From: an uncultured archaeon
GTDB taxonomy: Archaea > Asgardarchaeota > Thorarchaeia > Thorarchaeales > Thorarchaeaceae
Direction: 5' to 3'
Assembly (NCBI GenBank): GCA_964558645.1
Contig: CAZLEV010000003.1
Coordinates: forward strand, 192,001-256,000
DNA length: 64,000 nucleotides
Part shown: positions 40,614 to 57,097 of the stretch, one piece after another
Numbering within the stretch: position 1 is the stretch's first letter
How the letters are laid out: each line of letters begins with the position of its first letter
Program-made: the position numbers and the translations under genes
Notes under the pieces: generated by a model
Told to the model about the DNA's origin: nothing
Databases searched by the model: none
Seen by the model: the letters and a program-made list of their open reading frames with translations, nothing else

Positions 40614-41621
40614 CTATGTCAGCCTCAATTCTGTTCTTTCAGCAATAGGATTGGAGAGAAGCTTCATGTTCATCTCCTCAAGCTTCTCTAGGAGGTCGGG
40701 ACTTACCGGCTGGTTGACGGTGATTCTGTATATCCTTCCCGCACGAACATCTACTGCATGGTCGAATCCTAGTCTTGTCATGGCCTTTCGAGTCACTTCA
40801 CCCGGAGGATTCTTGATACCGTCCTTTGGCAAAACGAGAACTGATAGAGTCTCCACCCTATTGGGAATCTCTTCAGGGTCTGTTTCTCTCAGTCTGTCCA
40901 GTAGTCGTCTGTAAGCATCGACGACATCTCCTGAATCGTCTCTGAAGATGTCTTTGTCCAATGAGTCTTCATCCTTGTCCCAGACTCTAATCGTGTCTCC
41001 TGAGATCTCGTCTGCTAGTAGGATTGCCCCATCTTTTGTCTTCCCAAACTCAAGCTTGAAGTCAACGAAACGTAGTCCAGCTTGCGAAAGGAGTTCTCGT
41101 AGGTAGTAATTGACGGACAGTGTCACCGCATGTATGAAGGCAATCTCATCTGCCGTGGCGAAGCCAAGCCTTTCTATGGCGTCGGTGGAGAGGAGTGGGT
41201 CATGGAGAGAGTCATCTTTGAGGAAGAACTCAACCAAAGGTTCTGCAAGGACTTGCCCACGCTGGATGCCATATCGCTTACAGAATGATCCTGCAGCGAA
41301 GTTGCGGCATACAACCTCTAGAGGGAAAATCTCAACTTTGCGGCAAAGCCACCTTGTATCCTCAAGCCTCTTGATGAAATGGGTTGCAATGCCCTTTTCT
41401 TGTAGATACTTCAGAAGAAACTCCGACGTATCGCAGGTCACGAGAGCCTTACCCTCAATCTCGTCTCTCTTCTCACCGTCACCAGCAGTAATTGCATCTG
41501 TGAATTCTATGATGACTCTTTCTGGGGAGTCTGGGTCGGCGTAAACACGCTTGACTTTTCCCTCGTTGATTAGATCCAACTTCAATATCTCCTTTCTCTT
41601 TATGCTTGGGTTTTCTCGCAA
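40614..41621 (-). CDS. purC-purS: SAICAR synthetase (PurC)-PurS fusion
   Basis: EGKVK, PLEVVCRN..AGS, DFKLEFG, LADEISGDT.RVWD, LDKDIFR; C-terminal ~80 aa VLPKDGIKNPPGEVT...LGF..DVRAG...KLLSNPIAE is PurS-like. Confidence 0.92.
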   Translation of the reverse strand: MRENPSIKRKEILKLDLINEGKVKRVYADPDSPERVIIEFTDAITAGDGEKRDEIEGKALVTCDTSEFLLKYLQEKGIATHFIKRLEDTRWLCRKVEIFPLEVVCRNFAAGSFCKRYGIQRGQVLAEPLVEFFLKDDSLHDPLLSTDAIERLGFATADEIAFIHAVTLSVNYYLRELLSQAGLRFVDFKLEFGKTKDGAILLADEISGDTIRVWDKDEDSLDKDIFRDDSGDVVDAYRRLLDRLRETDPEEIPNRVETLSVLVLPKDGIKNPPGEVTRKAMTRLGFDHAVDVRAGRIYRITVNQPVSPDLLEKLEEMNMKLLSNPIAERTELRLT

Positions 41622-49153: not shown

Positions 49154-50233
49154 CTAAGGCTTCATTTGAGCTAGAATCTCTCTGAGTCTCGGCTCAGCCA
49201 GAATCGCATGCTGAAGTTTGCATAGCAGCTTCGCAGTTTCAGCAAAAATGACTTTTCTAGGAGCATCAGTCACTTGCTCCGCACTCTGGATTGCTTCCTG
49301 GCATCTCTGGTTTATTCTCTTGATGAGGCGCTTCTCGAGCTCAGGGCCGCCCCAGCCAAATCCATCGAATGCCGTCTGTGCGTCGCTGATCTTCTCGTCA
49401 GGGTTAGGTTCTTCGCCCTTGAGGATACCCTCAAGACCGGCAAAGTATCTCGCGACAGCTCGCTCAATCCTCTCTGTTTCGCCTGGATCCAAGTACTTCT
49501 CTGGTGGTCTATGCTTGGCAAGGTCTTGAAGCAGCCGTGCTCCTGGCGCTTCAGTAAGAAGTCCTTTAACAATTTTGACAAGTATTTGTCCGGGAATCTC
49601 TACTGCATCAGACATATGGGGGGATTGAGAGCGATACCTGTGAAGCTCCTTCATGACTTCAAACCAGAACATGGGAAGAAGGACATGACAACGCTTCGAA
49701 TATTGGTTGATCATGCGGTTCGTCTGTCCGATCATACCCCACTCGTCGTCTTCGACTTCTGCTTTCTTGTAGGGCTCTGGTGGGGTTTCTGGTTCCGTAG
49801 GCACAATGGGCCCGGTTCCCTCGCGTTCTTTCGGTGATGTGTGTGTGAGAGGAGTAGCCCTTCCGGTAGTCTTGGGTCCTCCCTCAAGTATCGTGAGAAT
49901 CTCCTGTGCCTCTTTCCCCATTTCCATGGCTTTGGCTTTCTGAGAGAGCTTGGGCAGCAGACTCTCAAGCTGTGCCATTCTCTTGATGATGAGTCCAAGA
50001 ATGTTGGCAGTAGACTGAGGAATACCTTTTGCGGATGTGGTTTCTTCAATCCATCTACGGGTGCGGAGGAGTCCCTGCGTCAGCGAGTCAACACGATCAG
50101 GATCTATTGCCCCCTCGACTTGTGAACTGAGCAAGAAGTGAATCAGAGTGGAGTTGAGGGTTTCAACTAGAAGCACCCTGTCGATTAGGTCCTCCACTCG
50201 GAATTCTTCTGTCAATTCTGGTAACTCCTTCAT
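49154..50233 (-). CDS. Hypothetical two-domain alpha-helical protein with Pro/Thr-rich linker; third gene of the tubulin-like operon
   Basis: 359 aa; ATG directly abuts the upstream TAG (TAGATG). Confidence 0.8.
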   Translation of the reverse strand: MKELPELTEEFRVEDLIDRVLLVETLNSTLIHFLLSSQVEGAIDPDRVDSLTQGLLRTRRWIEETTSAKGIPQSTANILGLIIKRMAQLESLLPKLSQKAKAMEMGKEAQEILTILEGGPKTTGRATPLTHTSPKEREGTGPIVPTEPETPPEPYKKAEVEDDEWGMIGQTNRMINQYSKRCHVLLPMFWFEVMKELHRYRSQSPHMSDAVEIPGQILVKIVKGLLTEAPGARLLQDLAKHRPPEKYLDPGETERIERAVARYFAGLEGILKGEEPNPDEKISDAQTAFDGFGWGGPELEKRLIKRINQRCQEAIQSAEQVTDAPRKVIFAETAKLLCKLQHAILAEPRLREILAQMKP

Positions 50234-51619
50234 CTACTCTGTTGGTGTGCTCGCTTCCATATAGTAGCTGAAAAGCTCTCGGAAGTCGTTGATAGCGCTA
50301 ACGAGTTCCTTTCGGGATGTGCCCTTGGATCTCATGAACCAACTCTGTTTCAACGGAGATGGACCACTATGGAGATTGACTAGCTGAGTTGCTTCATTTA
50401 TGAGTTGAACAAGCTCCGGAATCTTCGGTAGTCCGAGAAGCAACAAAAGATTAGTCGCATAGTCCCTCTTTTCATATTGAACATAGCATGGAGTGATGGC
50501 AGCTCCTGGTGCAATGAACTGGTCGAGAGCCTCTTTGAGATGCATACCATATTCTGCCTTCGAAATATGTCGCGGCCCGCTGAAGACATAGTAGACGCTC
50601 TCAGCATTAGGCTCCTCGCCAACGTCTGCATATGAACACTCCTTCACGGCATAATCGATCATAGTTCGGAGCTGTTTTGGCATACTCCCAGCATCGGGGA
50701 TCAGACCAACATCCGTGTAGAGTGCAGGCACGACCACTGGATCCAGTTTCCGTGCGTAGTCTGCGAGATCTGTTGTTGGGAATACATCCTTATGTGTTTC
50801 ATAGACGCCTGGTGAGAGCATTGCTTCGACAACATCAAGAGCAAGCGGATTGACAAGCTCTACAAAGGCCTGTTCGGTTCTCTCCTCAATCTCAGTCGCC
50901 TCATCGAGAGTTGAGGGTACCATTGTTTCGATTGAACCTACACTGGCTATGTCAACGTTAAGCTCTCGCTCAAGATAATCAACGCTATCGCTTCTTCGTG
51001 ACTGGAGGATTCGTTTCAGCATTGTCCTGTTACTCAGGAGAATAGTTAGGTCTGCCCCACGTTCCTGTAGCTGTGCACGGAGTAGTTTGGAGACCGCCCA
51101 TATGGAGTTGAGTGCCTCACTTGATTGTCCCTCAAAGGGAAGAATGCCGATTACATAAACGAAAATCCTGCGGCCTTCCTCTTCTTGGAATCGCTGCTTG
51201 AGGAGCTCAATCACTGCTGGCGTACCGCCACATCCAGTTCCTCCTCCGAGACTTGTGAATATGCAGAACCCGGAAACACCCTCGAATCCAAGGTTACTGA
51301 GCTGGTCAAAGATTATGTCCTTCGAGTCCATGACTGCCTGATAGCCGTCCATGAAACGGCCACCAACTCCAATCTCCGATGAACCGTAGAGCAAGGTGTG
51401 TTCCTTAGGAATGCCATATTTCGATCTGACCTTGGTAAGATCTGCTCTGTCGGTGTTCATCAGAAGATATCCTCTGACACGCGATGGTAGCTTACGGTCT
51501 CGGCTCGCCTTGAGGTACGAGCCAACTATATTCGAGCCTGCCTCACCAATGCCTATGGCGAATACCTCTGCCGCTTTCGTAGACTCATCCTCGGTCTTCT
51601 TTGAACTATCTCGAAACAT
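50234..51619 (-). CDS. Tubulin/FtsZ superfamily GTPase with tubulin-like features
   Basis: IGIGEAGSNI (T1), NTDRADL (T2), GVGG (T3), GFCIFTSLGGGTGCG (T4), EALNS, LSN, TDLADYARKLDP (T7/H8), C-terminal helices. Confidence 0.92.
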   Translation of the reverse strand: MFRDSSKKTEDESTKAAEVFAIGIGEAGSNIVGSYLKASRDRKLPSRVRGYLLMNTDRADLTKVRSKYGIPKEHTLLYGSSEIGVGGRFMDGYQAVMDSKDIIFDQLSNLGFEGVSGFCIFTSLGGGTGCGGTPAVIELLKQRFQEEEGRRIFVYVIGILPFEGQSSEALNSIWAVSKLLRAQLQERGADLTILLSNRTMLKRILQSRRSDSVDYLERELNVDIASVGSIETMVPSTLDEATEIEERTEQAFVELVNPLALDVVEAMLSPGVYETHKDVFPTTDLADYARKLDPVVVPALYTDVGLIPDAGSMPKQLRTMIDYAVKECSYADVGEEPNAESVYYVFSGPRHISKAEYGMHLKEALDQFIAPGAAITPCYVQYEKRDYATNLLLLLGLPKIPELVQLINEATQLVNLHSGPSPLKQSWFMRSKGTSRKELVSAINDFRELFSYYMEASTPTE

Positions 51620-51623
51620 GATA

Positions 51624-54311
51624 TTATCCCCGTTTCTTAACCATTGTGTCCGCTATAACTCGAACTGCCCATGATAGATATGAGCTTATGTCCTCTCTGC
51701 TGTAGGTCTCGCGGATTTTCCGTACAGCGTCATCCAAGAATTCATCTCGCTTGTCTGCGCTCTCCGCTGGACTGAATCCGGCCATGAACATCTTCAATGA
51801 TTTGTGCCAGTCGTCCATCTTCTCTGCTTTGTCGACCCATCCCTTGCGTAGTTTCTTGAGCTCGTTGAAGTGCTTGAGTGCTTCATCAAGAACCAGTGCT
51901 TCATTTAGCTTCGCTTCCAGTTCATACATGCGGTCCAGCGGGTAAATCTTCACGCTGAAGTCCTTTGGATGCTTCTCAAAGACACGTTCAATTGTTGAGT
52001 AGTACTCGCTCTTCTCACGTAATTCAGAGTCAAACTCTTCCGAATCCTTGTTAGCAATGCTCTTGATTACTGTGAGCATCTCTTCCTGCACGTTAGCCAA
52101 TGTAAGACAAACGTCCAGTGCCTCGTTGATGTGCTTAGACTCTGCATCTAGTTGTACTGGTACCTGCTCAACCAGTGTGTTCAAGCGCGCCACGAACTCT
52201 GACATGCCTTCTTCCTCAAAGAGATGAATTGCATCTTTTATCTGACTGTATGCTTCATCCACTCTGCTTCTGATCTTCTTGTGAAGGTCTTGGGATGTTG
52301 TGAGATTGGCAAGTCTGTCAAAGTCCTCAGCAGCAGCTTCAAGGTCACGTGGTGGTTCCGCCTTGATCTTTCTGAGAACGTCAAGCTCCTTAGTGACTTC
52401 CACTCCGATGCTCTCTGCCTTCTCGAATGATTGCTCCAAGTCGTCGACTTCTTCCATGAGCAAGTCGATGACTTCAGAGCTGATCTTCTTCTCGTATATC
52501 TCGATCATTTTGCGAGCGATTGCCGGTAAGCTGAAGACAGTATCCGCTGCCACTCCAATATTGTTTAGTTCACTGATTGCTTCTTGGACATCTGGGGGTA
52601 TCGTTACTCCTGCTCCCATGAGTTTGGCCGCTGCAAGTCGAATCTTGACCCGTAGACGATATCTGAGATTCTCCAACGAATCTTTCGCTTTTGCTAGAAT
52701 CGAATCCTTGATTGTCCGCATCTCAGACCTCAATGCCCCGAAATCGTCCTTCTTGTCCAGAGTACTGGCGCCGTCTTCTAGATTCACGATTATCGGCATG
52801 AAGATCTCAGCATATTCTGGCTTGATGGTTTGGAGGTCTTCGATGATAGCGTTTACTTCCTGTTTGCAGGCATCTCTGAAAGTTGCCACGCCGCTTTCCA
52901 CCGCATTCCTGAGATTGTTGAGACTCTCAACAAGATAGACTATGCTTCCTTCGAGGTCTTCAACCTTGGGCGCTTTCTTGCTCAGTTGTGCATAATCTAG
53001 CACCCTGTCGGCAGATGTTGCGAGCTCGTTGAATCTGGCCAAGTAGTTACGTATCTTGTCAGTCAGTTCCTGCTTAGCCTCATCGCGTATGGTCTTAGCC
53101 TTCAGGTAGATTTTGATCATACCATCAACGTCGGACTTCTCAAGTTCCTTTCTTGAGCTTGAAACGAACTTGCGTACACCTGACAGATCCTTTATTCCAG
53201 TGTCGTCGGGAACATCAGCTGCCTTCTCGACCTCATCGAGGGTTTCTTCTACTTGGTCTTTGAGAGCAATCTTGACTTGCCCCTCCCATTCAACCATTTT
53301 CTGATAGGAGGAGAGAAGTGACGCGACGTCCTCATTGTCGACCGAGAATACAGGAGCCTGAGGTATGACTGCTGAAGACGTGGGGATGCCCCCTTCAACT
53401 ATCTTGCTGGTTACCTCATGCTTCATGTTGATGATCCTGTCCCTTAGCATGTTGGCAACTTGGAGCCTAGCAGTTTCGAGTTGGCTCTCCAAAGATAATA
53501 GAGTAGTAAGCGTCGTGGCTTTGGATGCATCTCTTGCTAATTCACGAAGCTTCTGAGAAAAGTCCATTGGAAGGTTCAAACCCAGTCTAGTCGCAGTTTC
53601 AACGGAGGCCTGGAGGGACTCAATATCCGACATTAGAGAAACACTGAGCATTCGTGAGACTTCATCCTTACGACCGTCAAGGTAAGTCCTCTCTACTTGG
53701 AGCTTCTTCATAAGAGATAGAATATCAGGAATCGGTAAGTGAGATACTTCGTCAACAGAGACTGTCGTTGCAACTTCGCTTCGATCTATAGTGATATGCC
53801 TCTCATAGGTTTCAACAAATCTCTTGTTTTCGTCCAAGAGCTCCTTTGTATCACGAGCCAGTTCCTGATGCAGGCTGCTGTATTTCTTCGTAAACGCATC
53901 CGCAAACTCGTACAAGTGCGCTGCATCCTTGAAGTCGCCTGCGCCCATCGCTGGAACAGAAACGGCCGAGAGTGCTTTTGCATCTGCTGGCTTTATCTCC
54001 TGGATTGTTGGTATCATGCCCGTTACATCACGATGTGTCTTACGGAAAAGCTCTGCGAAATCACGAATAAGACGCATGAAGTCTTCCTCAAGGTTTCCCT
54101 CAGTATTCTCGACTTTGGATTTGACCTTCCTCTTCGAGAAGAATCCGGCGTCTTCAAGCTCGTTTTCTGTCTTCGACAGCTTTGCAAAGACATCATAGAG
54201 ATGCCTCACCTTTCTGTCTACTTGTTCTTCTAGTGAGGGATCAAGTAGTACTAGCATACCTTTCATTTCGGAAACACGGTCTAGTTCCCGTCGCCAAGTA
54301 TTCGAGTCCAA
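51624..54311 (-). CDS. Large all-helical repeat/coiled-coil rod protein (about 895 aa); first gene of the tubulin-like operon
   Basis: AGGAGGT RBS before TTG at 54311 (ORF-track start 54446 probably too long); no TM or NTPase motif; recurring 60-75 aa helical units. Confidence 0.85.
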   Translation of the reverse strand: MDSNTWRRELDRVSEMKGMLVLLDPSLEEQVDRKVRHLYDVFAKLSKTENELEDAGFFSKRKVKSKVENTEGNLEEDFMRLIRDFAELFRKTHRDVTGMIPTIQEIKPADAKALSAVSVPAMGAGDFKDAAHLYEFADAFTKKYSSLHQELARDTKELLDENKRFVETYERHITIDRSEVATTVSVDEVSHLPIPDILSLMKKLQVERTYLDGRKDEVSRMLSVSLMSDIESLQASVETATRLGLNLPMDFSQKLRELARDASKATTLTTLLSLESQLETARLQVANMLRDRIINMKHEVTSKIVEGGIPTSSAVIPQAPVFSVDNEDVASLLSSYQKMVEWEGQVKIALKDQVEETLDEVEKAADVPDDTGIKDLSGVRKFVSSSRKELEKSDVDGMIKIYLKAKTIRDEAKQELTDKIRNYLARFNELATSADRVLDYAQLSKKAPKVEDLEGSIVYLVESLNNLRNAVESGVATFRDACKQEVNAIIEDLQTIKPEYAEIFMPIIVNLEDGASTLDKKDDFGALRSEMRTIKDSILAKAKDSLENLRYRLRVKIRLAAAKLMGAGVTIPPDVQEAISELNNIGVAADTVFSLPAIARKMIEIYEKKISSEVIDLLMEEVDDLEQSFEKAESIGVEVTKELDVLRKIKAEPPRDLEAAAEDFDRLANLTTSQDLHKKIRSRVDEAYSQIKDAIHLFEEEGMSEFVARLNTLVEQVPVQLDAESKHINEALDVCLTLANVQEEMLTVIKSIANKDSEEFDSELREKSEYYSTIERVFEKHPKDFSVKIYPLDRMYELEAKLNEALVLDEALKHFNELKKLRKGWVDKAEKMDDWHKSLKMFMAGFSPAESADKRDEFLDDAVRKIRETYSREDISSYLSWAVRVIADTMVKKRG

Positions 54312-54508
54312 ATGCCTACCTCCTTTATGGGGCCTAGTCTTTCTCAGTGCACTATGTTTTAAGTGTGTTCTCCGTAGCTCCTCCCAGACTTGTATATTTC
54401 TATGACAGGCTGCTCCTATTGTGATAAAGCATTGTTTTATTAGCACACGAAAATGCCTTATGTTCTACATAGGACCCTGCGTAAGGGAAAGCTAGGCGAG
54501 TCGATAGA

Positions 54509-56452
54509 ATGTCGAGCCCGACTGGAGGTTCAGCAGAGACAGTTCCTCTTCGTCATGAGACTATCACACTGCTTGAGACCGACGTCTTGTCGGTTGTACA
54601 TGACGATGAACATGTCTATGCTGCTTGCAAGGATATGAAGGTCAGAGTATGGGCCAAGTCCAATTGGCATCTAGTTGCCACGCTAGGTGACACAAGTTCT
54701 GAACCCCTTGGGCTTCATATTGATAATGAGCACATCTACGCAACATGCGAGAAACGAGTCTATGTATGGAAGAAGCATACTTGGGGCATGATAGGATGGT
54801 TCGAGCTGAGCTACCAAGCTGCCACATCGATGATTCATGGAGAGTACCTTTACGTTGGCGCCAAGGATGGGCGACTTGTCTCGATTCGCAAAGACACACA
54901 TGAAACAAGTTCATGGCAACTACACAACTCAGACATTTCATCACTGTGGGCAAACGCCGATATCATATGTACTTGCTCGAAGAAGGATAGGCCCAGAGTA
55001 TGGAGATACAACGCGGACCAAGCCCCCTCTGAAGTAACTGAGCTTGAAGGAAAAGAGAAGTGCACAGATATCTCCGGAAGCAACGAACTCCTGATAGTAG
55101 GGTTAGGGACAGGCGAGATAAGACTCTGGGATCGAGTTGAATTTGACCTTGTAAAAACACTGAGCCTTGGCATTAACGAGCCAATCAGGCATATGTGGAA
55201 TAACAACCAGTATCTTGTTGCAGTCATCGGCGCCAAAACCATTGGCATCTGGGACCTGAAGAGTGGGGCAGAGATTGGATCCACAGAGATTGAGGATGTC
55301 GATATCAGCTTCCTCAGTGTTGATGGCGAACATATGTACATCGCGACTGATGACGGAATTCTGGTCGAGCGTTTCTCTCTTGGGGAGGTCATTCTTGATC
55401 TTGACTCTGAGGCTGGCATGGAGTTTGGTGCGAGCCTATTACGTACTTCTCCATATGACGTGTTGGAAGGCGTTCTTGATTTGAAACAGAAGGGTGAATC
55501 TCTGCTCAAAGAGGGAGAGTATCACAACGCTGTGACCCAATTCGAGAAAGCACTCCAGCTACTGATTGACAATAGCCACGCACTTCTAGAGGTTCCTGAG
55601 GAACAAGAGAAACTCACGCGAGAGCTTAACACCAAACTTGGAAGGGCCCTTCTCCGGAGTAAGATTGTGGAGCTTCATGATATCAATGCCCGTATTGAGC
55701 AGATATCAGACGAGCTAGAACTGAAAGGTAAAACAGAAATAGAGGAGAAGGAACTCGAAAAGCTCTGGAGGGAGGCTGCATCTGCAGCCAAAGAGAGCCG
55801 TGTGCTTGCAGAAGCGCAGGCTGGAGATATGCTTGCTTACCAGTTGTCCTATGTTGCCGATAGCTTGGAGTCAGATCTTCAGGATGCCAAGCAGAAAGTT
55901 GAGCAATACCGTGACAAGGTTCAGCAGGTTGTCGCCTTGACCCATGGCATAATGAGCGAATGGCGCTGGATGGAGCGTCGGAGGACCACACTTGCTCAGA
56001 GGAAAGCGTTTCTTGAGAACGCCATCGAGAGGCTCGAAAAGCGGCTTGACGAAGTGGATGATGATGAAGAGGTTCGTGATATTCTCGAAGAGGCGATAGA
56101 AGAACACAAGCAGATTCAAGACCAGATATCTCGTATTCTTGAAGCCTCTGAGAACGGTGAAGAAGAAGAGATTACTGATAGGGATGAGGCCGTAGCGGCA
56201 GTCAACGGCCTTCTGAAAGTCATGCCAAAGAGGAGGAGCGCATTGCTCTCAATTGAGGATTCTGAGGAACGACAGCAGGAGAAGGAGCGTCTGAAAAGCG
56301 CCCTGCAACAAGCGCTTGAAACCGCAGAACAACACAGTCTGAAGGAAGAGATTCGAAACATTGAGAATGAACTCAATGCACTGGAAGGAATCGACTTGGC
56401 CAGAGAGCGCGTGTCACCACACGTAGATACCGAGGACACCGACCAACAGTAA
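54509..56452 (+). CDS. WD40 beta-propeller plus TPR/MIT-like helical bundle plus coiled-coil protein
   Basis: Repeats ending VRVW, VYVW, PRVW, IRLWD, IGIWD; LKQKGESLLKEGEYHNAVTQFEKALQLL; E/K/Q-rich heptad C-half. Confidence 0.85.
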   Translation: MSSPTGGSAETVPLRHETITLLETDVLSVVHDDEHVYAACKDMKVRVWAKSNWHLVATLGDTSSEPLGLHIDNEHIYATCEKRVYVWKKHTWGMIGWFELSYQAATSMIHGEYLYVGAKDGRLVSIRKDTHETSSWQLHNSDISSLWANADIICTCSKKDRPRVWRYNADQAPSEVTELEGKEKCTDISGSNELLIVGLGTGEIRLWDRVEFDLVKTLSLGINEPIRHMWNNNQYLVAVIGAKTIGIWDLKSGAEIGSTEIEDVDISFLSVDGEHMYIATDDGILVERFSLGEVILDLDSEAGMEFGASLLRTSPYDVLEGVLDLKQKGESLLKEGEYHNAVTQFEKALQLLIDNSHALLEVPEEQEKLTRELNTKLGRALLRSKIVELHDINARIEQISDELELKGKTEIEEKELEKLWREAASAAKESRVLAEAQAGDMLAYQLSYVADSLESDLQDAKQKVEQYRDKVQQVVALTHGIMSEWRWMERRRTTLAQRKAFLENAIERLEKRLDEVDDDEEVRDILEEAIEEHKQIQDQISRILEASENGEEEEITDRDEAVAAVNGLLKVMPKRRSALLSIEDSEERQQEKERLKSALQQALETAEQHSLKEEIRNIENELNALEGIDLARERVSPHVDTEDTDQQ

Positions 56453-56464
56453 CTGCAGATTTAC

Positions 56465-57097
56465 TTACCCTGCAGCCGGATACTCGTCAGAAATGCCTAG
56501 CTCGAAGAGATTGTCTTGACGCAATAGTTCGATCCACTCGTCAGCCAAGGGTTGGAGACCCGGGTCAATGGCAAAAGCTGTTTCTGCGGCCTGCAAGGCC
56601 TCATTGTAGGACTCCTCGATGAGGTAACAGACAGCGAGGTTGTACCAGGCTACAGCCGAGTTTGGGTTGAGGCTTAGGGCACGTTCAAGCGAGTGTTTAG
56701 CTTCCTCCCATCGCTCATGGGCGATAAGGGCAATGGCAAGAAGCTCCCAATCTCTGCTCCGCTTGGGTCTGATTCGAAGGCTCTCTTGCAGAGCGTCAAT
56801 TCCCTCATCACTCTCATTAAGAAGCAGGTGAAGATATCCTTTTTCAGCCCATGCTTTTTCAGAACAGGGTTTAATTCTCACTACGTTCTCAAGCGCCTCC
56901 AAGGCTTTCTTCGGTCGTTTCAGTTCAAGGTTGCAGACAGCTATTCGCTCCCAGATGTGATAGTTGTCTGGGTCGATTAGTGCTCCCTCTTCAAGAGCGT
57001 CCACAGCCTCAGAGAACCTGAACTTCTTCATCAAGACAGAGGCCTGATCCAGAATACCGTTTACTGCATTGTTTTTGTGGTTGTTTCTTAACAACAC
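56465..57097 (-). CDS. Tetratricopeptide repeat protein
   Basis: About 5 TPR units (e.g. AWYNLAVCYLIEESYNEALQAAETAFAIDP). Confidence 0.88.
   Translation of the reverse strand: MLLRNNHKNNAVNGILDQASVLMKKFRFSEAVDALEEGALIDPDNYHIWERIAVCNLELKRPKKALEALENVVRIKPCSEKAWAEKGYLHLLLNESDEGIDALQESLRIRPKRSRDWELLAIALIAHERWEEAKHSLERALSLNPNSAVAWYNLAVCYLIEESYNEALQAAETAFAIDPGLQPLADEWIELLRQDNLFELGISDEYPAAG

Follow-up and report, generated by a model that had tools for sequence, protein, structure and literature searches.

The Asg.Tub protein of a Thorarchaeon, a GTPase of the tubulin/FtsZ superfamily, carries a tubulin-type H11'-H12 hairpin on a CetZ-like core. Its gene lies on the minus strand of the window, the whole 64,000-nucleotide stretch of contig analysed here, and the segment 50255-50422 (-), in which a first-pass annotation had recognised apparent H11 and H12 C-terminal helices of tubulin, encodes residues 400-455 of the ORF 50234-51619 with no stop inside. 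Both pieces quoted there are present in the translation, and a 9-residue link (417-425) separates them. A Pfam scan of the Thorarchaeon protein assigned the GTPase domain to PF00091 (E 9.5e-19).

50234..51619, minus strand: Asg.Tub tubulin/FtsZ-superfamily GTPase, 461 aa (PF00091; model; near-identity to KXH77455)

The Asg.Tub clade was named in 2023 by Santana-Molina et al. from four sequences (PMC9871819). One of them, KXH77455 (supplement of that study), is near-identical to the Thorarchaeon GTPase, and by eye the N- and C-termini of KXH77455, OLS30664, OLS26264 and PWI48967 (same supplement) are those of the GTPase family. Asg.Tub was judged there to be nearer CetZ than tubulin, coiled-coil neighbours were noted beside it, a C-terminal HMM gave no match to other families, and H11 and H12 go unmentioned for it (PMC9871819). 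Matches of phmmer and hmmsearch against PDB sequences stop short of the C terminus, and this explains the match missed by the 2023 HMM. The closest relatives of the GTPase are from named Thorarchaeota (83–98% identity) and the remoter ones from Hodarchaeales, Hermodarchaeota and further Asgard groups (50–63%), the LC_3 member being our match P0115 (50% identity, E 2.6e-143). We found no experimental work on any Asg.Tub member in the literature; as far as we could find, the clade is thus already named but unstudied, and the homology of its H11'-H12 to tubulins is the new element, an earlier mention of H12 for Asg.Tub in the literature being possible. The Thorarchaeon genome also carries two canonical FtsZ at other loci, so that division is covered by other proteins.

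An AlphaFold2 (AF2) model of Asg.Tub was computed from an 89-row alignment (pTM 0.86). Following the last strand (390-396), it displays helices at 401-416, 422-431 and 436-453, with a pLDDT of 87-94 across 401-450 and disorder only at 456-461. Three ordered helices after S10 are the predicted H11, H11', H12 pattern, and the helices proposed from the sequence were in this way borne out.

50432..50452, minus strand: last strand S10, residues 390-396 (DSSP on the model)
50372..50419, minus strand: H11 equivalent, residues 401-416, found also in CetZ, TubZ and PhuZ; invariant E402, A410 and L413 (model, structural alignments)
50327..50356, minus strand: H11' equivalent, residues 422-431, invariant W427 and F428, then invariant K432 and G433 (model, profile match)
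50261..50314, minus strand: H12 equivalent, residues 436-453, with Y453 at the place of beta-tubulin Y422 (model, profile match, structural alignments)

Structural alignments of the model to beta-, alpha- and gamma-tubulin, BtubA, OdinTubulin and Atub reach residue 455-459 (356–368 residues), while those to CetZ end at residue 415-425 (319–327 residues), those to TubZ and PhuZ reach residues 417-423 and the one to FtsZ ends at residue 398, which agrees with the earlier statement that H11 and H12 are absent from FtsZ. The tubulin alignments are about 35–40 residues longer than the CetZ ones, the length of H11'-H12. When compared to sequentially numbered beta-tubulins, the end points keep a constant offset of 31 (458/427, 457/426, 456/425, 455/424), which puts Y453 on beta Y422 and makes the structural register that of the sequence match. 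The top structural match is OdinTubulin (Z 35.8, rmsd 2.8 Å, 364 residues), tied with CetZ2 (Z 35.2, 327 residues). These results support an H11-H11'-H12 equivalent that is ordered in the model, has a tubulin-like placement and is missing in FtsZ. The segment is predicted to run over the outer side of the subunit, as its tubulin counterpart does, a packing of H11'-H12 deduced from alignment ranges, residue counts and end register, in a model that may lean on memorised tubulin structures.

Homology was assessed by comparing the family profile with a true-tubulin profile, for which tubulins were gathered from Asgard genomes and from databases. Residues 422-453 matched with a score of 29.25 and an hhalign probability of 94% (32 columns, 19% identity), which substantiates the C-terminal resemblance at the profile level. 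As a null, we scored 350 same-length windows, in forward and in reversed order, drawn from elsewhere in the protein and from its two helical neighbours; they gave 7.6 +/- 2.1 with a maximum of 16.75, so that none reaches 29.25 and a chance helix match was rejected. The H11'-H12 segment itself scored 10.0 when reversed, and its match spans the non-helical W-aromatic-x-x-x-x-G turn, beyond what helical period alone would give. The first-pass alignment to beta-tubulin with one extra residue holds for all eight listed pairs, Y453 on beta Y422 included; two of the eight are nevertheless incidental, since E438 is conserved in only 34% of the family alignment and S451 in 9%, where G is the usual residue. 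Full-length hhalign to tubulins misaligned H7-H11 and was used for the ends only. H11 alone has no sequence similarity to tubulin H11 (profile score 5.7) and aligns weakly with the C-terminal helix of CetZ1. Since H11 is common to CetZ and TubZ, only H11'-H12 is tubulin-type. The annotation, which took both helices as marks of tubulin, was consequently right for H11'-H12 but not for H11, aligned in CetZ, TubZ and PhuZ too. We are confident that the H11'-H12 of Asg.Tub is homologous to that of tubulins, and H11 is an older feature common to CetZ and TubZ.

Conservation along the segment is uneven. In the family alignment W427, F428, K432 and G433 do not vary, A442, D445 and L449 hardly do, and the link together with H11' reaches a conservation of 0.77, the level of the GTPase domain. 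Within H12, the i, i+3/4 face, taken from the helical period to be the packing face, has a conservation of 0.85 against 0.45 at the other positions. Kinesin binding requires the acidic residues E410 and D417 on H12 of beta-tubulin (PMC4735607); the corresponding Asg.Tub positions, 441 and 448, are variable. The net charge of the segment is +1.2 +/- 1.4 versus -7 in beta-tubulin, that of OdinTubulin being likewise not acidic (+1). As the annotation had remarked, there is no acidic Glu-rich tail in the family alignment: past residue 453 come on average 8.5 residues, 1.6 of them acidic. A basic patch around H11' is conserved (K424, R430, K432, K/R436) and could bind something. The suggestion that H12 offers the neighbours a surface of MAP or motor type is not supported, conservation being on the inferred packing face and not at the beta E410/D417 positions. 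Such a pattern is what one would sooner expect of a structural cover than of a conserved docking surface.

The GTPase core is mixed, with F89 in T3 and E168..N171 tubulin-like and with T2 and T7 FtsZ/CetZ-like.

51353..51370, minus strand: T3 loop, residues 84-89, its invariant aromatic F89 matching the T3 aromatic of tubulin and BtubA in position (alignments)
51227..51247, minus strand: T4 signature GGGTGCG, residues 125-131 (sequence)
50891..51001, minus strand: variable insertion of about 37 residues between H6 and H7, residues 207-243 (conservation 0.46, pLDDT 55-73)
50756..50776, minus strand: T7 loop and start of H8, residues 282-288, FtsZ-type DxxD with invariant D284 and D287, the usual Asn being Thr (family alignment; putative role from the motif)

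NxDxx[D/E] is the hydrolysis motif (PMC12583498), and D284 and D287 of T7 are invariant in 89 sequences. The GTP signature and T7 acidic residues of the trans-acting type are thus both present, as in cytomotive filaments of the tubulin superfamily. The Asn to Thr change in T7 and a T6 Asp flanked by Ser/Arg nevertheless make GTPase activity uncertain. The H1-S2 loop has 7 residues in the model and falls in gaps against the tubulin profile. In tubulin, the H6-H7 region has a bearing on the straightness of protofilaments (PMC7491153), and the insertion found there in Asg.Tub could hinder or regulate polymerisation.

In order to place the family, a tree was built on the core without the C-terminal helices, with group labels assigned by eye. 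Asg.Tub forms one clade (support 99), the 12 tubulins form another with Asg.Tub outside (support 100), and Asg.Tub sits on a branch apart from the 27-row CetZ group in a backbone whose order is not fixed. The sister relation of Asg.Tub and tubulins is absent from that tree and is not rejected (p-AU 0.245). Tubulin_C (PF03953) matched neither the protein nor anything across the 85 genomes of the family, and it does match in the 8 Asgard genomes with true tubulins; CetZ_C (PF21011) is absent among the Pfam matches on the protein with E up to 1. A bona fide tubulin was rejected for want of a Tubulin_C match and of the H1-S2 insertion and for the position outside the tubulin clade, and FtsZ identity was rejected on the TIGR00065 score (35.9 bits versus a cut-off of 295) and on the structural alignment that ends at 398.

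When compared to known systems, Asg.Tub shares with OdinTubulin, AtubA/B, BtubA/B and alpha/beta-tubulin the H11-H11'-H12 in register, the T3 aromatic and E..N after T5 (Z 33–36, rmsd 2.8–3.5 Å, 356–368 residues). It differs from tubulins by an identity of 15–20%, the lack of PF03953, the short H1-S2 loop, the H6-H7 insertion, T2 (NTD) and T7 (DxxD) of FtsZ/CetZ type and a Glu for Gln in T1; unlike those of A/B tubulins, its genes are not paired. CetZ (Haloferax CetZ1 4B46 and CetZ2 4B45; Methanosaeta 3ZID) provides the best PDB sequence matches, reaches a structural Z of 34.6–35.2 and has the same short N-terminal loops and H11, but no aligned equivalent of H11'-H12, and its T7 is DxxE instead of DxxD. 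TubZ and PhuZ have the same fold with H11, although with a Z of 21–29, no H12 aligned and genes of mobile elements, whereas Asg.Tub is a core gene of its lineages. FtsZ shares the GTPase fold and the T2 and T7 motifs.

The GTPase gene is the middle one of three, with junctions of 4 nt and 0 nt, and its neighbours are helical or coiled-coil genes with no known family, as expected for the Asg.Tub clade.

51624..54311, minus strand: upstream partner, helical protein of about 895 aa with no known family (4 nt separate its end from the start of the GTPase)
49154..50233, minus strand: downstream partner, 359 aa, with an N-terminal three-helix bundle, a linker and a helical C-terminal domain without recognised fold (begins right after the GTPase stop)

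The upstream partner is listed as a 940-aa ORF at 51624-54446 (-), and its start is probably the ATG at 54311, which gives 895 aa, the length of most homologues; those of Heimdall and Baldr are longer (1169 and 1023 aa), apparently through internal repetition. In a sample of 400 Asgard genomes, Asg.Tub was found in 126, belonging to nine families and including 75 of the 85 in its own, whereas the earlier description had a set of four (PMC9871819) and made no mention of the tubulin-type H11'-H12 seen here. It is single-copy in most genomes carrying it and is absent from other Asgard families, for instance from one of 135 genomes. The downstream partner shares the nine-family distribution of the GTPase and is its neighbour; wherever a locus extends far enough (Thor, Hermod, Sif/Borr, Heimdall, Baldr), the upstream partner adjoins the GTPase gene too. 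Identity across classes is 50–60% for the GTPase versus 22–30% for the partners. Related genomes are not independent, and these data therefore speak for a conserved operon, not for binding. Eight of the 400 genomes have true tubulins, and the four families to which they belong (f10, f21, f28, f29) had no Asg.Tub in the sample, possibly by chance with only 8 genomes.

Fold searches with the downstream protein gave no Foldseek match and nothing beyond generic matches to three-helix bundles (Z at most 10.3), with the C-terminal domain barely covered. In ESM Atlas feature searches the 359-aa protein had no match and the 895-aa protein matched its own cluster only. Domain and fold searches found no DNA-binding family in either partner. 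A complex prediction for GTPase residues 14-456 with residues 150-359 of the downstream protein scored 0.00, 0.33 and 0.00, which counts neither way.

Further observations concern the surroundings of the family. In eight genomes of family f11 (G057, G061, G067, G068, G072, G073, G074, G077) a second full-length Asg.Tub paralogue lies at another locus, with one downstream partner gene per genome; this could be a two-subunit system or an orphan copy. At L097:5001-7149, the gene that comes after a distant relative (P0125) encodes 262 aa, with an N-terminal hydrophobic, membrane-like helix and a weak match to the C-terminal domain of the partner (hhalign probability 15%; E 7e-4 among 10 sequences), which hints at possible membrane anchoring of the partner domain. 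In two MAGs the Asg.Tub frame stops early while similarity continues (L056:884-2259, 440 aa; L061:6986-8475, 396 aa), through assembly errors or insertion. In the window, a gene for a divergent WD40, TPR and coiled-coil protein (54509-56452, +) and a TPR gene (56465-57097, -) adjoin the operon. They do so in most Thorarchaeota loci and are missing beside the Hermod, Sif/Borr and Heimdall operons, which places them outside the core module. Besides, a SAICAR-synthetase-like ORF with a C-terminal extension lies within a purine gene cluster (40614-41621, -).

The best explanation, and one we hold to be probable, is that the protein is a filament GTPase that activates itself, with a hairpin that predates microtubules and partners that tether or organise the filament. 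The H11-H11'-H12 hairpin would go back to an ancestor that Asg.Tub and tubulins had in common, and is predicted to fold back and cover the outer face of the subunit, a structural role. Its conserved aromatic and basic H11' turn would probably aid the head-to-tail contact between subunits, by analogy with tubulin. Judging from the motif, the GTP of one subunit would be hydrolysed by D284 and D287 of the next (PMC12583498), and the product of the single gene may form dynamic CetZ/TubZ-like protofilaments, sheets or rings, not microtubules. The two helical partners may act as a scaffold or tether and as an adaptor, and the most likely role would be in cell shape or membrane organisation, as for CetZ, both proposals drawing on operon conservation. 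The analysis shows the predicted fold, the homology, the conservation pattern and the operon; from these we infer polymerisation, partner binding and cellular role. A filament role is likely from the intact T7 aspartates and the operon; the cytoskeletal model of the first-pass annotation is retained to this extent, but not the support it sought in H12.

Other explanations were weighed against this one. Were H11/H12 an outer docking surface as on microtubules, with the neighbours as MAP-like binders and possibly tube-like polymers, one would understand the presence and tubulin-like placement of the hairpin, the fixed operon with two helical proteins, a basic patch that could bind an acidic partner and the first rank of OdinTubulin, tied with CetZ2, in the structural search. 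It is unlikely, however, given that exposed H12 positions are the least conserved, that those of beta E410/D417 are variable, that the charge is slightly positive instead of -7, that no Tubulin_C match exists, and that an H1-S2 loop of only 7 residues, versus about 30 in OdinTubulin, means that the lateral contact loop of microtubules is missing. A GTPase that forms no long dynamic filaments but joins its two partners (895 aa and 359 aa) in a stoichiometric complex, where it is a subunit or switch, would agree with the tight junctions, the strict co-occurrence and a GTPase far more conserved than its partners. The insertion 207-243 would then cap the plus-end face, loosely like gamma-tubulin on helical scaffolds. 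Both the complex and the capping seem to us distinctly improbable, as contacts of the protein with itself, head to tail, best account for the invariant trans-acting T7 aspartates, the insertion varies and is modelled with low confidence, and the searches above found no likeness of the partners to known scaffolds.

The type III layout of DNA segregation is a small operon of filament and adaptor, which the locus recalls, and TubZ and PhuZ are structural relatives with H11; a TubZ-like segregation filament with the 359-aa protein as DNA adaptor is nonetheless very improbable for a gene that has housekeeping genes around it, lies on a chromosome-like contig and is found nearly throughout its own lineages, with no DNA-binding family found in either partner by the searches above and with a Z of 26–29 for TubZ versus 33–36 for CetZ and tubulin. 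The resemblance might also reflect convergence, or an artefact of modelling in which the H12 groove receives whatever amphipathic helix ends the chain, and the short match at low identity, the 2023 C-terminal HMM without match (PMC9871819) and a core tree that keeps Asg.Tub and tubulins unjoined are in line with this. We consider it very unlikely, since the profile score far exceeds those of the 350 helical controls over a match that includes a non-helical turn, the registers of sequence and structure agree independently, and the sister relation is compatible with the data (p-AU 0.245).

Asg.Tub may not be the only archaeal carrier of the hairpin. Several divergent tubulin-like proteins from a wide search have, by eye, helix-turn-helix patterns after S10. 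In the ESM Atlas, a 572-aa euryarchaeal (Methanobacteriota) tubulin-like family with 80 members matched residues 8-456 at TM 0.75, beta-tubulin reaching 0.70, and this family is probably another H11'-H12 carrier. Single sequences scored 17.9 (P0134) and 18.1 (P0151) against the H11'-H12 profile, with a reversed maximum of 15.2, and Halo.Tub-like proteins scored below 15. These scores are weak, and the hairpins of other archaeal families are therefore leads only. A single origin among archaeal tubulin-like proteins, before microtubules, is likewise a lead.

From the H11/H12 displayed on the outer surface of Asgard mini-microtubules, it has been argued that archaea may possess motors or MAPs (bioRxiv 10.64898/2026.02.15.705738). 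Should a non-tubulin clade have a homologous H11'-H12, then the hairpin predates microtubules, having probably arisen in a structural role, and motors do not follow from its mere presence; our results suggest that it is indeed older than microtubules. Asg.Tub is a concrete CetZ-tubulin intermediate that is common (126/400, including Hodarchaeales by source names) where true tubulins are rare (8/400), and it informs the succession of steps that led from FtsZ to tubulin. Speculatively, and with a low chance of being right in full, Asg.Tub would be a surviving sister or stem lineage of tubulin with H11'-H12 but without the lateral-contact loops, the main tubulin-like cytoskeleton of the lineages nearest eukaryotes, and its operon partners the first archaeal filament-associated proteins that bind the hairpin. 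If this reading, which takes Asg.Tub as a core gene of Thorarchaeia and Hodarchaeales, were true, evolution would have proceeded from FtsZ to H11 (CetZ/TubZ), then to H11'-H12, and then to the microtubule loops.
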